NCBI GenBank assembly: GCA_951406725.2
Contig: OX597830.1
Location: 24,056,001-24,120,000 of the forward strand
Reading direction: 5' to 3'
Source: Octopus vulgaris
Taxonomy: Eukaryota
Length of the DNA stretch: 64,000 nt
This document shows positions 19,657 to 60,720 of the stretch, piece after piece. Both the position numbers and the translations under genes were made by a program. Position 1 is the stretch's first letter. Every line of letters starts with the position of its first letter. A model generated the notes under the pieces. That model was given only the letters and a program-made list of their open reading frames with translations. It was not told the origin of the DNA and made no database searches.

Positions 19657-20630
19657 GTCAGGTTGGTGCTAAGGTAATGGCCGATTTTAAGGTATCTATC
19701 AAAAATGAAAAATCCAATGACTAAGACAATATTTATTTGTTAACATAATTTCCATTGCTTTCTACAACTTCATTCTATCTGTCAACAGGCTTATAAATGC
19801 CACGCTTGTAAAAATGTATAGATTTTGATGCGAAATATGAATCCAGCTCATTTTCAACCTTTTCTCTTGATGTCAACCTAAGACCATTCAAATAGTTCTG
19901 AAGTCCCCGAAATAAGTGATAATCTAAAGGAGCAAGGTCTGGAGAATATGGAGGATAAAGCAATATTTCTCAGCCAACCTCTTCCAAGAGAACTTTGGTT
20001 AGTCGAGCTGGTGTGCGGACGAGTATAAATATGATGGAAGATGACACCCTTTCTGTTGACAAAGAAATGTCGCTTCCTGTTCAAAACAGCTTTCAAACGA
20101 TGAAGTTAATCGCAGTAGAAATTAGTAGAAATTGTTTGATTGTTGCCTAGACACAATCTGATCTACCTTGGATGAAGCCCTCCTCTTGGTTATTGAACAA
20201 ATCTTCCTCCTCGACTGATTCACGATTGGCAGTGTTTAACGTTATGGTAAAGGATTCACATCTCATCACCTGTAACAAGCCTTCCTAAAAATAGCTCCCT
20301 AAGGTGTCGTGAAAGCAATGACTGACCACAAACAACACGCTGTTGCAGATTCTCTGCAGACATTTCCTGCAGGACCCATTTTCCAACCACTGAAACCTTT
20401 CCGGTCCTTTTCAGTTGGCGTAGAACAGTTGTATGGGCTACATTAACCTCTTCTGCAAGTTCTCTACAAGTAGCAGTTGGATCTTCTGTGACAACAGCTT
20501 CCAACTCTTCGGTATCGAGTTGTTTTGAACGACCTTTTTTTGGCTCTCTTTCAAACTCAAATCCCTACTTTTGAAGCGAGAAAACCGTCCCCTGCAACTT
20601 CTTTCACTCACTACATCCCCATAAACTCTC
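19657..20630 (-). mobile_element. Degenerate mariner (Tc1/mariner) transposon; transposase pseudogene, 5' end missing
   Basis: Fragments KWVLQEMS (WVPHEL-like), LGRLVTGDE, RKGVIFHH..RPH and PPYSPDLAPLDYHLF; TIR-like CAGGTTGGTGCTAAGGTAATGGCCGATTTT at 19658. Confidence 0.9.
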
Positions 20631-22678: not shown

Positions 22679-24750
22679 GAGTTAAACGCAGGTGTTATTC
22701 AAATTCCGACACATGTTTCGAAGGTATCATTAGTATTATTCCGAAGGAATAAAATGATGTAAAACAATGTAATCATCTCTTCATAGAAATGGAGAAATAA
22801 AACTCGTCAATAAGACATTTTAACAGAATATGATGGATATGTATAGTGATGAACTGAACGCTATTAAGTTGTTTTTTTTTTAAACGTTTAAAAAAACGTT
22901 TTAAAAAAACGTTTAAAAAAACGTTTTAAAAAAGACGTTAAAGGTAGCCTATAGAAAGAGGAGGGGTAAAGAAAAGAAAAAAATCAGAAACCAAATAAAT
23001 GAGAAATATAAAACGATATGTGTATTTATATAAAACCCTAAAGTCTTGGAAAAAGATATATCTAATGGAAGTGAAATGTAAAAAGAAAATCAATGTTTAA
23101 ATTATATATAGTGGTAGCTATCACTTATATGAATTCAAGGTGTGTTTCTGCCAATGTTTACATCGATAAGCACGTTCTATAATTGTGTTTACAAGGGGAG
23201 TTTTAGAAAAAAGAATAAAAAATAGTTCACAATTACAGAGAAGACAAAATTCCTTGCCTTTATCATAAGAGAACGAAATCAAGAGAATCAACTAATCTAA
23301 ATTAAATTGTTTATTATAATCTTTTAGATAGCAAATTAATTTACTAAGTCCTGTACTGTTACGTTTATTCCTATCCCTAAATGTAGAGTAATGATTAGAA
23401 ATTCTTTTAGATAACTGAGAAGAAGAACTACCTATATAAAAAAGACATCGGTACCTGAAGTAATTTTACACCGGTATATAGTTTTTAATCATAGAATTAC
23501 TTGACATAAACTTAATTCCGTTGGAATTGACTTCAGAGACAATAACATTGTTATCAATATTTCTAGGCGGATGGATGGTATCAGCTAAATTAATGATAGT
23601 ATTAGCAAATGGATTCTTATTTAACAGAATAATATTATGTGAGGAGATAATTTGTAAGAGATTTTTTGTGTTGGAAAAACCAATCCTAACAGTGTGCGAG
23701 TTGATAATAGAGTAATACCTAGAATTTCTTGGAAAATTCCTAATAATAGCTTCCCGAAACTGGAAAGAAAGATTAGATTTACTTTGCCTCCCATAAGGAA
23801 TAATCAACCAAATAGTTTTTGCTATTAGTTGCTTTATTTTTAGTGTAACTATCTTTAAAAGACATCGATTTACCTTTAGAATGAAAAAAGGGGTTTAAAT
23901 AAGGATATCTCCCTTCCTCTGTTTGTAGTTGGCGTATAAATTTATCAGTATAGCCTGCTTTAAGTAAGGCAGTTATAAAATTCAGCCTTGCCATTGAAAA
24001 TGTCAACATTAGCAGATAACTTAGACAATCTAAATGAAATATTTTTAATTACGTTCTTAGTGATTTCCCTAGAATGATTACTGAATTGGCTAATATACTT
24101 AAGATTGGTCGATGATTTGTGGTATGGGAAGTACGAATTATTGTGTAAGTTAAGTGTAATATCTAAAAAGTTGGCTTTCGTTACATCATCATGAAAAACG
24201 ATGCCTAAGCCCATTCTACGGAAAAACTTAACTAAACTATTCTTAACCTTTTGTACTTTTTGGTCAGAAACATTTTGATGGTAAAGTAAACAATCATCAC
24301 GATATAGACCTCCATTAATGCTTGGGAATTGGTCTGCCATTTCATAGAGTATATATATACAGACCAAATGAGCTACTTGTGCTGAATCAGAACTTCCCAT
24401 CGTAAAAAAAACTTAATAGCGTTCAGTTAATCACTATACATATCCATCATATTCTGTTAAAATGTCTTATTGACGAGTTTTATTTCTTCATTTCCCTGAA
24501 GAGAAGATTACATTGTTTTCCACCATTCTATTCCTTTGGAATAATACCAATATCTTCGAAACATGTGTCGGAAGTAAAAGAATTTGAATAACACCTGCGT
24601 TTAACTCCATTTATTTATTTATAGATATTATACAAAATATTTCACATAAACCCGGAGTTTCTACCTTTACAAACAGGGTATTACGCCCTTTTTACTTGTG
24701 TGAGTTTTTACTACCCTGGTAACTGTTTATCTATTTTCCGTGTTAATTGT
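22677..24750 (-). mobile_element. Penelope-like retroelement, 5'-truncated, with an inverted pseudo-LTR
   Basis: RT motifs MGSSDSAQVAHLV, GLYRDDCL and NFLDITLNL (ORF 23960-24400); frameshifted thumb/linker; GIY-YIG remnant at ~23125-23500. pLTR 22677-22870 is inverted at 24411-24610. Confidence 0.92.
24490..24575 (+). ncRNA. Type I hammerhead ribozyme, canonical core, in the inverted PLE pLTR
   Basis: Stem I ATTTCC/GGAAGT; CTGAAGA (24496-24502); stem II GAAGAT/ATCTTC; GAAA (24558-24561); stem III with ACATGT palindrome; GUC triplet, predicted cleavage after 24569. Confidence 0.85.
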
Positions 24751-33746: not shown

Positions 33747-34379
33747 CTATCCGTTTTCTTTAGGGGACCAAAAACGTAACAGAAATTTAGTCACATGTGG
33801 GCATGATCCGAAAAGTTCTGTCCTTGTATTTAGACATGTGGTAGGGTCTAAGCTGCTTTTCCAGATAAGCCATCTCTCCATGTCGCATAAACCGCACCTT
33901 CCGCTGCCGTTAGTATAGGGCTTACATCTGGCCAAAATCTTCCATTGTATGTTATAATCGACACCTTTATCTCTTAAAGACCAAATATGATTGGATAATT
34001 GTGTCGCTTTTCTTTTGTTCCAGTGCCTAAAGCTCAAAGTGTGGTTATTGAACCTGGCCTTGAAATTACCCTCTGTCAGGCCCACGTATTTCTTCGTCGA
34101 AACGGTGTCTTTAGTGGTTATAGAGTTTACGGTAGCTTCATATATGATGGTCTTGGACATGCAAGCTCCATTTAGCGGGCACAATTCTTTATTCCTGCAT
34201 GAACAGCTGTTTTCTTCTTGTGTTTTTTGTATGTTATGATTGATTATGTTTTTAAAATTGGTAGTTGAACTAAAACTAATTTTTAAATTGTGTCTATTGA
34301 AGAGTTTCCTATAAGCATGGTTAACTGGAAAATGTCTATCTATCAGTGCTAGGAAATATTTACCTATATTGAAGGCCAC
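33747..34379 (-). CDS. PLE GIY-YIG endonuclease domain (fragment of the RT-EN polyprotein)
   Basis: CSCRNKELCPLNGAC, IIYEATV...KYVGLTEGNFKARFNNH, TQLSNHIWSL, CGLCDME and LNTRTELFGSCPH are typical Penelope-clade endonuclease motifs; the upstream frame continues as RKVIWLTPPYS. Confidence 0.88.
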   Translation of the reverse strand: MAFNIGKYFLALIDRHFPVNHAYRKLFNRHNLKISFSSTTNFKNIINHNIQKTQEENSCSCRNKELCPLNGACMSKTIIYEATVNSITTKDTVSTKKYVGLTEGNFKARFNNHTLSFRHWNKRKATQLSNHIWSLRDKGVDYNIQWKILARCKPYTNGSGRCGLCDMERWLIWKSSLDPTTCLNTRTELFGSCPHVTKFLLRFWSPKENG

Positions 34380-34715
34380 CTCGGGTGAGTAAGGGGGCGT
34401 AAGCCAGATGACCTTCCTATTTCTATTATTCCTTTTCCTTATTGTTGGGCTGGTGATAGGTGTATATTTTATTTTTTCGCTAAAACCACTATCTTTTAAA
34501 GCTTTATTATAAACTGGGGCAACGGATAGAACATGCTTTCTGTGTTATGTCCCAAGAAGATTTTATATATTTTTATATATTTTTATGTATTTTTATATAA
34601 TTTTTATGACGAAAAATGCGAGCGATGTATAAGTACGCAGGCAAAGCAGAGTTATAACAGAGTAATTTCCCTTCATTTTTAACGGTATATTTTTTCATAA
34701 CGTTTTCAAATAGCC

Positions 34716-38989: not shown

Positions 38990-39265
38990 AACACACACAC
39001 GCATGCACACACACAAACACACACAAACACACACATACTGAACTCTACACGTTTTTTTATCATTCTCTGTCTATTTATTTCTTCATTCCTTTCTGTTAAA
39101 GAGCGTAGGTTCGAAACGTAAAAAACTTTTCCATTCTCCCTGAGCGCCAAACTAAAACACTTGCTTGGTGTTCCTACACCTGGCTGAGTCTTTGTCTTTC
39201 TGTAAATTTGGAATTATATATATATATTATTTGTTAGTATAGTTACTAATCTGATCTCTTCTTAC

Positions 39266-39391
39266 CATTTGACTGCGGCCATGCTGGAGCACTGCCTTTA
39301 GTCGAGCAAATCGACCCCAGGACTTATTCTTTGTAAGCCTAGTACTTATTCTATCGGTCTCTTTTGCCGAACCACTAAGTGACGGGGATGT

Positions 39392-48769: not shown

Positions 48770-50538
48770 TACTATAAATAAATGAAAGAATGGAGTCGAA
48801 CAACGATTTAACAAAATTCCTTTATTCTCAACATATGTTTCGAAGACTGCATATTCTCAATTCCGAAGGAATAAAGGGTGCATTATGCCGCCTTCTCATC
48901 AGGAAAGACAAGGAACTTTTGTCAGCATCATGACGAACAAAAACTTTTAGATAACTGCCCACACGGAGTCCATAGTGATAATGAGTGTTTCTTTAAAATA
49001 TTCCGTTATAAGCAGTGACGTCAAAATTGGTTGGATGGAGAAGATTCTAAAAAGTTCAAGAGTTCAAAAATGGTTGGAAGGGGTAAGTTTTAAGAATAGG
49101 AGGGTGACAGAGTGCAAGTCGTATGTATGGTGATGCGTTGTTGTTTGCTTTTGCTAATGAGATCGAGTGCCTATGTGTGTATATGTATATAACTGCATTC
49201 GTGTCTATGTGTGTATGTGTGTGCGTGATTGTGTGTGTGTGTGGGGGGGGGATAAATGCCAAATACATCTAGTGGTGAAGTGACAGGATTGTGTCTGTGT
49301 GTTTGATTGTGCTTATGATAGAGAGAGGGGGAGAGGTAGAGAGACAAAGGTAGAACATACCCCAACGAATTTGGTAGTCGCCCTTCATGTAGCGGAGTAT
49401 AAAAAAATTTGTCTATGGTGTTGTTGTAGAAGTGGAACCACATTATTAAATTCAAGGAGGTTATCTATATTAATCATCATTCATATGAGTGGAAGGTGTG
49501 TTTCTGCCAGTGCATGCATTTTTCTACCATTGTGTTTACTAAAGGGAATTTGGCGAAAAGTATATAGAAAAGCTCGGAATTACAGACGGCACAATATTTT
49601 CTGCCCTTATCAAAAGGAAAGGATACAGACAATATGGACCATTCCAGCTTGAAAGTTATATTGCTGTCCTTAAGACGCCAAACTAATTTACTTAGTCCTG
49701 TACTTTGTTGTTTTCTCTTATCTCGGAAAGTTGAATAATGATTGGAAATCCTCTGGGATAATTTAGAAGTAGTCGCCCCAATATAGAAGAAGACACCGGT
49801 ACCGGAAGAAACTTTACACTGGTAAATGGAATTTCTAATTTTGGAATTACTGGACAAGAACTTTAATCTTTTAGGGTTTACCTCCGAGACTAAGACAGAG
49901 TTTTTATTGTTATGATTGCTGTTAATATTATTGCTAGCACTGACCACTATACTATTTCTATTATTGTTATTATTATTAATTGTACTATCGCCGGCAATAT
50001 CCTTGACTATAAAAATGCTGCCATTGTTATCATCAATACTATCTCTGTTATTAGAAATGCTGTCGTTGTTACCACTAACACTACCGACTAATATTATTAC
50101 TAATATTCCCATTGTTAATGCCAACGCTGTTATGAATGTTGCTATTATCAATACTATTTCTATTATTATTATTGTATGTTTGGTTGGAATTGGTAATAAT
50201 AGTGTTGTAACTCCCGGGTGAAGAATCCTTGTTTAGCAGCTTGTTATCATGGGAGGCAATAATTTTGCGATAGATTTCTAGTGTTAGAGAATGCAATCCT
50301 TACCTTATGCGAATTGATAGTAGAGTAATATCTAGAATTCCTGGGAAAGTTCCTAGCTACGGCTTCACGGAACTGCAAAGGAAGGTTTGACTTGATTTGT
50401 TTTCCGAAAAGTATGACAAACCAGATATAGTTTTTTGTGGACTTAGAATTGTTCAAAGTGTTACCAGTTACATTAAAGGGAATATTTCTGTGCTGGAAAA
50501 TTGGGGTTGGTTGCCGATTGCCTCCCCTGGTCCGTAAA
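48770..50538 (-). mobile_element. Penelope-like element 3' fragment (thumb, Asn-rich linker, GIY-YIG, 3' pLTR)
   Basis: ORF 49477-50151 has IYQCKVSSGTGVFFYIGATTSKLSQRISNHYSTF...STGLSKLVWRLK...CAVCNSE. Upstream frameshifted NFPRNSRYYS segment is shared with 23466-23807. Lies between (TA)n tracts. Confidence 0.9.
48817..48915 (-). ncRNA. Type I hammerhead ribozyme, canonical core
   Basis: Minus strand TTCCTT..TTTC-CTGATGA-GAAGGC...GTCTTC-GAAA-CATATGT-T-GAGA..AAGGAA; ACATATGT palindrome; GUU triplet. Confidence 0.8.
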
Positions 50539-50555
50539 TTATATATATATATATA

Positions 50556-53666: not shown

Positions 53667-54932
53667 TTAGGTTGTCAAGAAAGTTCTTGCGGAATTTTTA
53701 ATTTTGGTTTTAAGTGATGTATTTTCAAATTAATTTTCGTTAAATTACTTTGACTTTATATAGCATTTTAAAGCAGCCCGTTTTCGCTCTATCTAATCGT
53801 GCTACTTCTTTTCTTTTAGAATAATTAGGCTATTTTTTCAGGAACGTTGAATACAACATGGACAAAAAGGAAATTCACACAATTTTGTTATTCCAGTTCA
53901 AGCTTGGTCGAATAACTGCTGAAACAGCTCGCGATATCAACGATGCGTTTGGCCCAGGAACTACTAATGAACGTACAGCACAATGATGGGTCAAGAAATT
54001 TCGTAGCTGTGACGAGAGTCTTGAAGATGATAAGCGTAGTGGTCGGCCATCGGACGTTGACAACGATCAACTAAGAACCTTAGTGGAAGCCAATCTACGC
54101 ACAACTGAAATCTGACAATTTCCAACCACTTGAAAGAGATTGGAAAAACAAAAAATAATTGAGAAATGAGTGCCGCAAGAATTGAACGACAACCAAAAAA
54201 AAAAAATGCAGTTTTGAAGTGTCTTCTTCCCTTCTTTTACGCAGCAAGAAAGACCCGTTTCTCGACCGGATTATGACTTGCGATGAAAAGTGGATTCTTT
54301 ATGACAACCGACGACGCTTAGCTCAGTGGTTGGACGCCGACGAAGCTCCTTGGCACTTCCCGAAGCCAAAGTTGCACCAAAAGAAGGTGATAGTGACTGT
54401 CTGGTGGTCTTCGGCTGGTCTCATCCATCACACCTTTTTGGATCCAGGCGAAACCATTATGGTGGAGAAGTACTGTCAGCAAATGGATGAAATGCATAAG
54501 AAACTCCAACAACAGCCAGTATTGGCCAATAGAAAAGGACCAATTCTTCTCCACGACAATGCTCGACCGCACGTCGCAAAACTGACCCTGCTGAAGTTAA
54601 ACGAAATGGGCTACGAAACTCTGCCTCATCTGCCATACTCACCAGAACTTTCGCCTACCGACTACCACTTTTTCAAGCATCTCGACAACTTCCTGCGTGA
54701 GAAATGCTTAAAAAAAAAACAAGACGATGCCAAACCTGCCTTCAATCAACGACTTCATCGCCACCTGAACGCAGGATGTTTAGGCTACTGGCATAAATAA
54801 ACTTGTTTCGCGTTGGCAAAAGTGTGTTAAATCTGATGGTGTTTATTTTGAGTAATAAAGTTTTGTTTGAGCCGAGATATGTGCATCTGAATTTAAAGGT
54901 TAAAAACGGCAAGAACTTTCTTGACAACCTAA
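53667..54932 (+). mobile_element. Full-length mariner transposon (Hsmar1/cecropia-like) with TA TSD
   Basis: TIRs TTAGGTTGTCAAGAAAGTTCTTGC / GCAAGAACTTTCTTGACAACCTAA, TA on both sides, 1266 bp. Confidence 0.95.
53858..54855 (+). pseudogene. Mariner DD34D transposase pseudogene
   Basis: MDKKEIHTILLFQFKLG..., PFLDRIMTCDEKWILYDN, ILLHDNARPH and YSPELSPTDYHFF; in-frame stops, frameshifts and a deletion. Confidence 0.93.
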
Positions 54933-59095: not shown

Positions 59096-59516
59096 TCTTT
59101 TACTCTTTTACTCTTTTACTTGTTTCAGTCATTTGACTGCGGCCATGCTGGAGTACCACCTTTAGTCGAGCAAATCGACCCCAGGACTTATTCTTTGTAA
59201 GCCCAGTACTTATTCTATTGGTCTCTTTTGCCGAACCGCTAAGTAACGGGGACATAAACACACCAGCATCGGTTGTCAAGCAATGCTAGGGGGACAAACA
59301 CAGACACACAAACACACACACGCATACATATATATATACATATATACGACGGGCTTCTTTCAGTTTCCGTCTACCAAATCTACCAAATCTACTCACAAGG
59401 CTTTGGTCGGCCCGAGGCTATAGTAGAAGACACTTGCCCAAGCTGCCACGCAGTGGGACTGAACCCGGAACCATGTGGTTGGTAAACAAGCTACTTACCA
59501 CACAGCCACTCCTGCG

Positions 59517-59520
<4 letters not shown>
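59095..59520 (-). mobile_element. SINE family A (young-looking)
   Basis: Full-length match. Confidence 0.93.
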
Positions 59521-59557
<37 letters not shown>

Positions 59558-59660
59558 ATATATATACAGACACACTCACGAATACATATCTATGTATACA
59601 TATGTATAGATATATGTATAGATATATACATATCTTGCCATTTCTCTGGCGGCCAGGTGT

Positions 59661-59709
59661 TCGCGACTGAGGATGAGCAAACTTGCTCGAAACCGAATCG
59701 GTCTCGTGA
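59661..59709 (+). ncRNA. Type I hammerhead ribozyme, canonical core with one extra U after A9
   Basis: TCGCGA-CTGAGGA-T-GAGCA-AACT-TGCTC-GAAA-CCG-AAT-CGGT-C-TCGTGA: 6-bp stem I, 5-6-bp stem II, 4-bp stem III, GUC triplet, predicted cleavage after 59703. Confidence 0.88.
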
Positions 59710-60447
59710 CCCTGTCGTTTGCTGGAGGATGGCAGGGGTTCGCTTCTTGCTAGGAATTTATTTATACAGGATGCAGGTTGAACCTATAGCTGGCTGATGG
59801 AAGATCTGCCTGGGGTTAAACTAGTTGTAGCATTGCACAGCCACATTGATGTGGCGCTCAACTTTACTTGTTTGTATAGTTACTACTCTGATCTATTCTT
59901 GAGATTTTACAACTAGTATTTTAGCTTACATGCGTGTATGTGTGTGTGTATTGTTGTTGTGCCTCGGGCCACTTTGTATCACACAGATCTTGGTTTAAAT
60001 CTATACTAACCGAGAACTCTATTCTTGACCTAGAGTATCCGAGACTACATTATGTAGAGTGTTTTATTTTCCATAACACAAAATTGTGTGATTTCAGTAA
60101 AACTTGACAACTAGGTTTGACGTTCCATCGTTGTAGCAAAGGGAGATTCCAGTTGCTGGAGCGTGCAGCGCATTGTGCGTATGAGCACTGTACTTTACCT
60201 CGAGCCTACACTGCTTTAAATGAAGGCAAATCGAGCGCTTGTGCACTTTCACCCATTCTAGTTGAGCCACTGAATGAATTTCATGGTGGTAGACGGAATA
60301 TTTGTCTGCCCGACACTACATATAAACCTACAACAATTAACGAAGACGTAGGACATGTCACACAGCTATACTCACTTGCTAGTGATGACTGACTGATTCT
60401 CTTTGATATTGTTATTTAGTCTTATATGTATGTATATATATATGTGC

Positions 60448-60497: not shown

Positions 60498-60718
60498 AAT
60501 ATTAGGGAATAAATCCAAATTTACAGGGAAAAAATCAGATTTAGGATTAAATCCAATTTTATAGTAAAATATTATATAATATTAATTAGAGACAAAACCA
60601 CTATTCTGCAAAACAAACAAGGAAAGACTTAATCAATACATAAAATTTTAATAAAAATTTTATGTATTGATTAAGTCTTTCCTTGTTTGTTTTGCAAAAT
60701 AGTGGTTTTGTCTCTAAT

Positions 60719-60720
<2 letters not shown>
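60495..60720. mobile_element. Fold-back unit with 67-bp arms (60583-60649 / 60654-60720) within (TA)n
   Basis: Near-perfect palindrome with one mismatch and an asymmetric tail; related sequence at ~10700-10750. Confidence 0.8.

Follow-up and report, generated by a model that had tools for sequence, protein, structure and literature searches.

A hammerhead motif in Octopus vulgaris as the probable ribozyme of an old, dispersed non-LTR retrozyme family

The window, by which we mean the whole analysed stretch of 64,000 nt of Octopus vulgaris contig OX597830.1, carries near its 3′ side a GC-richer island between microsatellites, as a first-pass annotation made from the letters alone had reported; we place it at 59633–59927. 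The island is a single, 5′-truncated copy of a repeat (hereafter the window copy), and the following features are used below:

59519–59632, no strand: TA-rich microsatellite at the 5′ junction
59633–59927, plus strand: 5′-truncated monomer of a ~356-nt hammerhead repeat (295 bp; nhmmer 271 bits)
59634–59769, plus strand: long imperfect fold-back with the hammerhead at its tip (the unit profile also matches the opposite strand; fold z −2.7)
59640, plus strand: position of profile column 67, where transcription of the family is inferred to start; the window copy has no ATCAGTG box, which in the family lies 59 nt upstream
59654–59714, plus strand: extension of stem I with an internal loop (59658–59660 facing 59710), where the loop 1 of a type I hammerhead is expected
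59661–59709, plus strand: type I hammerhead motif, predicted cut after C59703 (from pattern and sequence reading)
59674, plus strand: extra pyrimidine between A9 and G10.1, family-wide (U here; of 74 copies, 65 have T and 9 have C)
59679–59684, plus strand: loop 2, 6 nt in the family and ending in A (67 of 74 copies); its last base is U here
59692–59702, plus strand: stem III, 4 bp with a triloop, near-palindromic; its 3′ strand can alternatively pair with the core strand at 59665–59670
59860–59874, plus strand: internal site at which other copies have their second fixed 3′ terminus (end B, profile 300–309, where 30 of 160 segments stop)
59910–59927, plus strand: end A, the principal fixed 3′ end, abutting a short TG-rich run

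The core of a type I hammerhead (CUGANGA, GAAA, UH), stems I–III and an open stem I are all present at 59661–59709. Stem I pairs 59661–59666 with 59704–59709 (six pairs, one of them G-U), the core strands are CUGAGGA at 59667–59673 and GAAA at 59689–59692, stem II starts at G59675–C59688, and the stem III strands, 59692–59695 and 59699–59702, enclose a 3-nt loop next to a GUC site with C17 at 59703. The core nucleotides, the GUC site and the extra U at 59674, all noticed in the first-pass annotation, are confirmed by the sequence and by a strict type I pattern, which matched once in the window and once in total across 200 block-shuffled windows (mean 0.005). No Rfam match in the window reached a gathering score, neither for Hammerhead_1 nor for HH9; the best signal at the motif was Hammerhead_HH9 with 18.8 bits (E 0.077, cut-off 52).

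Such scores below all Rfam gathering thresholds, together with a predicted minimum fold that is not the hammerhead, would be compatible with a chance match to the consensus in a GC-richer island. This reading has practically no probability left: only 0.005 matches are expected per window, and the motif stands in register family-wide, with the variable position 7 free to change (A in 38, G in 28, C in 8 and T in 5 of 79 rows) and 84% of 1488 cells paired over 65 rows vs 33–45% when the stems are slid. The family alignment rules chance out.

The suggestion of a retrozyme-like family proved correct, and a search for paralogues of the island, proposed at the same time, found dispersed and head-to-tail copies across the genome, hundreds of them, with a repeat period of ~356 nt. 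Searching the own genome (2.8 Gb) with the window copy yielded 942 first-look candidates and 55 matches that were scored, spread over many contigs; for a dimer query the corresponding figures were 1234 and 58, again on many contigs; the other full-length matches are 75–80% identical. An exact 26-mer near the 3′ end of the unit occurs 34 times in the genome (control: 0), from which, at 89% per-site identity, we estimate ~700 occurrences, and the family comprises roughly 700–1200 dispersed copies. The best 40 candidates of the two own-genome searches included neither a long tandem array nor a young source copy. A search of the genome with RF00163 returned six Hammerhead_1 matches over the cut-off (L116–L121), none of them homologous to the ~356-nt unit; three are a 108-nt form with a long stem II insert, and each is a single copy in its own locus.

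Aligned to the family profile, the window copy spans positions 60–345 of 351 plus a few bases reaching the main 3′ end, and the predicted cut falls after position 130. Its closest relatives are 81% identical (median 76% over 87 copies), and copies show a median of 86% identity to the family majority. Columns with CpG are 71% conserved vs 89% for the others, which, together with the low identity, indicates an old family that decayed as DNA, in a manner that looks neutral. None of the three ORFs overlapping the window copy has a Pfam match and the GC content of the unit is under 50%, as in the non-coding units of non-LTR retrozymes. The fold-back of the unit spans profile 5–200, and nine natural periods folded as circles gave z values of −1.1 to −4.6, against 20 shuffles each. 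A 45-bp fragment of the same family (profile 293–337) lies elsewhere in the window, at 39227–39271.

For the hammerhead itself, 79 rows were aligned and five removed as fold-back misalignments, leaving 74 copies, of which 34 have an intact core and only four, the window copy included, keep the core and all 14 pairs. As the extra base between positions 9 and 10.1 is a pyrimidine in every copy, it must be ancestral; an extra A occurs in CChMVd(+) (PMC1636495). The loop 2 sequence CAAAUA of Schistosoma is present in 7 of 22 pattern matches. Covariation is weak: in the 65 rows that remained after 19 of 84 candidates had been excluded by eye as short or gappy, the observed score was matched by 28 of 500 shuffles. 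The sole clear compensatory change concerns the third pair of stem III (U-A in 45 and C-G in 6 of 65; C-G in the window copy), many other double changes being CpG decay. RNAalifold run on the 65 copies did not recover the hammerhead and gave an unrelated weak structure instead.

The family has the 3′ A of loop 2 through which loop 1 and loop 2 make contact in the full-length, fast form of the ribozyme; the window copy lacks it, having U at 59684 where 21 of 21 other subfamily copies have A. In the Schistosoma and sTRSV hammerhead structures this terminal A is paired with loop 1, and in CChMVd(−), a viroid hammerhead, replacing it by U left almost no cleavage (PMC2632901). Consequently, the window copy has likely lost the contact needed for fast cutting. 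In our judgement, cleavage of this copy in vitro at high Mg2+ could go either way, and fast cleavage at cellular Mg2+ is rather improbable. The same private A-to-U change accounts in part for the long stem II, and this is why the copy looks so well paired: the three well-paired stems of the first-pass annotation do exist, but one of them owes part of its length to a mutation.

Being among the four best-preserved copies, and differing from the subfamily majority at 3 of 45 positions within the motif vs 28 of 226 outside it, the window copy might be regarded as an exapted self-cleaving site under selection in a host transcript, as the first-pass annotation had considered. However, this difference is not significant (Fisher p 0.20), and it was its intact look that led to this copy being picked as the best ribozyme candidate. 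Moreover, the A of loop 2 is lost, position 59710 is C where most copies have T, and a scan of 40 of the 140 window ORFs revealed no host exon. We therefore regard exaptation as very unlikely.

The statement that the motif is able to fold as a monomer is not borne out by ViennaRNA, which favours a rod pairing 59665–59670 with 59698–59703, lower in energy by 3.2 kcal/mol in the 49-mer and by 4.8 in longer contexts. The preference is family-wide and no peculiarity of the window copy: across the 19 copies, out of 65, that retain stems II and III intact, the ensemble-energy gap ranges from 0.9 to 13.3 kcal/mol (median 6.2), energies here being compared without a proven-active hammerhead as reference. 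Nearest-neighbour models omit the non-canonical pairs of the hammerhead core. For both reasons the predicted rod does not refute activity. The competing pairing is due to a recurrence of the beginning of the core in the 5′ strand of stem III, which in the main subfamily reads ACUGA (with four positions free, chance would give this in ~1 of 250 cases). Near-palindromic as it is, stem III can also pair between two molecules (computed at −13.6 kcal/mol), so that a dimer is possible, though not needed.

This repetition raises the possibility, which we put forward tentatively and hold to be somewhat doubtful, that the family hammerhead contains its own off switch: while transcription proceeds, the local hairpin would prevail and cut, and the longer core pairing would later lock the ligated circle. 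If true, an off switch within 49 nt would answer the question, posed in PMC7229834, of how animal retrozyme circles escape re-cutting. According to that source, most animal retrozyme circles are predicted to have a free hammerhead, some mussel circles excepted, and the mussel hammerhead and circle folds in its supplement may already contain such a blocking pairing.

Regarding transcription of the unit, 45 of 54 copies have ATCAGTG 59 nt upstream of the A of column 67. All 15 U1 loci, which belong to a single cluster, have ATCAGT at −57 to −59. Of 15 U2 loci, 12 have it at −57 to −60 and one more has ATTAGT at this place; in the remaining two U2 loci an element is inserted at +1. A TATA-like run at about −30 prompted the reading of a U6-type promoter, and 15 U6 loci lack the ATCAGT box at the corresponding place. 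The box was not flagged by an ungapped 18-mer scan of the U2 upstream regions against the unit profile; it was found by eye and then counted. From the A of column 67 onwards the bases of the unit resemble the U2 start, and in two loci, L003 and L090, the unit is interrupted at this very A by retroelement DNA, the 3′ end of which shares 74–81% identity with the element found at +1 of U2 in L127 and L134. These retroelement fragments occupy L003:1166–1494 and L090:about 711–1411 and are accompanied by short duplications. The family unit thus likely carries an internal promoter of the U1/U2 type (snRNA-type). The window copy begins at 59633, 7 nt before the A of column 67, and therefore lacks the box and, likely, the promoter. 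Locus L170, considered as a chimera of retrozyme and U6, turned out to be a U6 copy with other repeat DNA inserted into the unit: at L170:1403–2092, a full array-type U6 copy and other repeat DNA lie inside a retrozyme copy, at the end B site.

The anatomy of the insertions was studied in 96 unique loci out of 115, a sample enriched for long copies by the dimer query. Among 160 unique segments, the 3′ ends of 102 fall at profile 340–351 (end A) and those of 30 at 300–309 (end B). Each of these ends is preceded by a similar T-rich word, and what follows is mostly TA repeats, CA repeats or the next unit. Arms in opposite directions were present in 35 of the 96 loci, 19 combining A with B, 2 A with A and none B with B, while 14 were not typed (p 1e-4 for A/B pairing on the 21 typed loci). 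A head-to-tail junction was present in 46 loci, where 39 arms exceed one unit; the longest arm measures 654 nt, none is longer than 1.8 units, and two hammerhead sites occur in 4 loci. Segments within an insertion are slightly more alike than those of different insertions (0.811 vs 0.794; 48 of 72 pairs, the pairs not being independent). The family thus exists in multiple head-to-tail copies, the window copy itself being a sub-monomer. It also displays the twin 3′ ends, one-sided tail, inverted arm and microsatellite junctions expected of elements mobilised by Penelope-like elements (PLE); an inverted 5′-truncated copy, a tail at one end and microsatellite targets are described for insertions of EN+ PLEs (10.1101/2021.04.23.441226).

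A clustering of 5′ ends at the cleavage site was ruled out, with 3 to 4 of 145 starts at profile 133–141. Reading the window copy as a full-length cDNA from the start site is likewise unsupported: 12 of 145 starts lie at profile 60–72, two of which are insertion sites of another element, and none of 39 segment starts lies there in a 3′-anchored sample. Lacking a pile-up at the cut or at the start, the 5′ ends record neither cleavage in vivo nor the start site. As the 3′ ends lie away from the ribozyme cut and arms cross the intact ribozyme beyond one unit, the template was presumably a circle or an uncut multimer, with both of which the data agree.

Several other repeats lie in the window. At 48826–50540 on the minus strand there is a 5′-truncated PLE consisting of a GIY-YIG remnant (49480–50232) followed by a pseudo-LTR (pLTR), which contains a minimal hammerhead with a long loop 2 at 48826–48906; this PLE has at least 150 own-genome matches with 79–98% protein identity, and its copies either stop at a fixed point in (TA)n or continue into a tail. 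A second PLE remnant at 23124–24575 has ORF pieces on the minus strand and, on the plus strand at 24490–24575, a related long-loop hammerhead, which thus lies in an inverted pLTR. The PLE-like ORF remnant at 33795–34409 (minus strand) is distant, with ~30% identity to the family at 49.5 kb. The stretch 59096–59520 is a very abundant short repeat matching 83 of 185 fetched loci (best ~92%), which we take to be SINE-like. A long near-perfect inverted repeat lies beside (TA)n at ~60540–60720, the segment 60500–60720 matching 7 of 185 loci, and Tc1/mariner transposase remnants were recognised at 54186–54797 (plus strand) and 20259–20564 (minus strand) by the Pfam domains Transposase_1 and HTH_Tnp_Tc3_2.

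The PLE-type twin ends, the inverted arms and the TA junctions would also suit a solo pLTR of an autonomous Penelope-like element whose ORF-bearing copies went unsampled, close to what the first-pass annotation had in mind with a solo terminal repeat. The extra base separating positions 9 and 10.1, typical of PLE hammerheads (PMC4209133), and the proposal that retrozymes derive from pLTRs (10.64898/2026.07.22.740005) point the same way. However, in 46 of 96 loci the unit is directly followed by another copy of itself, and its canonical stems of 6/4/4 bp and six-base loop 2 fit retrozymes and not the minimal motifs of PLEs. The annotation was right that no PLE ORF is adjacent: within 9 kb in the window there is no reverse transcriptase or GIY-YIG ORF in fixed register, and the nearest Penelope-like ORF remnant is ~9 kb away (Pfam on 40 of 140 ORFs; 19 PLE frames against the whole window). 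Compared with the pLTR of the PLE family at 48826–50540 (20 loci), whose hammerhead is of the minimal long-loop type, the unit profile showed no homology, one unrelated neighbouring copy aside; a mobilising PLE was thus not matched by sequence in this one family. Altogether, a solo pLTR appears improbable, and it is highly probable that the hammerhead belongs, as its ribozyme, to an old non-LTR retrozyme, which is a non-coding repeat of ~356 nt dispersed in hundreds of copies, and that the locus is one 5′-truncated, likely dead insertion of it.

The life cycle of the source elements probably ran along the following lines. A source element of more than one unit would be transcribed from the U1/U2-type promoter inside the unit, starting ~64 nt before the cut, two successive hammerheads would excise a monomer, and a host ligase would close the circle; RtcB circularised axolotl and mussel monomers in vitro (PMC7229834). 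A GIY-YIG Penelope-like element would cut TA-rich DNA and its reverse transcriptase would prime at one or the other of two T-rich sites that resemble each other and lie 224 and ~170 nt beyond the cut, reverse transcription passing through the intact ribozyme junction. In the case of the window copy, copying would have stopped 7 nt past the start site. Having no promoter and a single hammerhead, this copy would therefore give no circle by itself, and slow cutting at cellular Mg2+ is what one would expect of a read-through transcript of it.

The locus is thus likely a promoterless sub-monomer of a decayed non-LTR retrozyme with one damaged hammerhead, and by itself it carries little weight, as one decayed copy among hundreds of a class known from mussels. 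The family is of wider interest as an older layer: it shows that an extinct family, with copies now ~24% apart, already had the U1/U2-type box and the twin-end footprint of Penelope, and that its start site was already a target of another retroelement. It also supplies a small testable model of a hammerhead that possibly switches itself off. For ribozyme scans it suggests caution, as the best-looking copy may owe its longer stem to the very mutation that removed a key tertiary base.

Among the titles listed by literature searches, none concerned a cephalopod retrozyme; one paper, PMC6962438, contains a single mention of a hammerhead. The closest known systems are the metazoan non-LTR retrozymes, above all the mussel family of 350–390 bp (Cervera and de la Pena 2020, PMC7229834). 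As described there, they have a type I hammerhead in a non-coding unit of 150–450 bp with less than 50% GC, lack LTR, PBS and PPT, form head-to-tail copies and share the genome with PLEs, all of which holds for the octopus family, too; their unit is self-paired, and that of the octopus family may be so as well. In contrast to them, the octopus family is old, consists mostly of dispersed 0.3–1.8-mers with no array found and is known from DNA alone; furthermore, a competing local pairing is predicted to block its hammerhead, unlike in most of the metazoan circles considered in that work. The dispersed solo units correspond to the retrozyme monomer derivatives of Li, Clavereau and Pollet (2026, 10.64898/2026.07.22.740005), which are there non-transposing offspring with a proposed PLE origin, in a survey covering vertebrates, insects and a coral. 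By their rule of two intact hammerheads, no octopus copy seen here qualifies as active. With EN+ PLEs (Craig et al. 2021, 10.1101/2021.04.23.441226; Cervera and de la Pena 2014, PMC4209133) the family shares partial tandems, the inverted 5′-truncated arm, the tail at one end, microsatellite targets and the extra base between 9 and 10.1, whereas its unit is devoid of an ORF, its tail measures ~50 nt vs 30–40 and its stem III is full, not minimal. The six-base loop 2 ending in A and facing an internal loop of stem I resembles the Schistosoma Sm-alpha hammerhead (PMC2632901), from which the window copy departs by its U in place of that A. Finally, an internal snRNA-type promoter, in the octopus deduced from the sequence only, is a parallel to newt satellite 2 (cited in PMC2220036).
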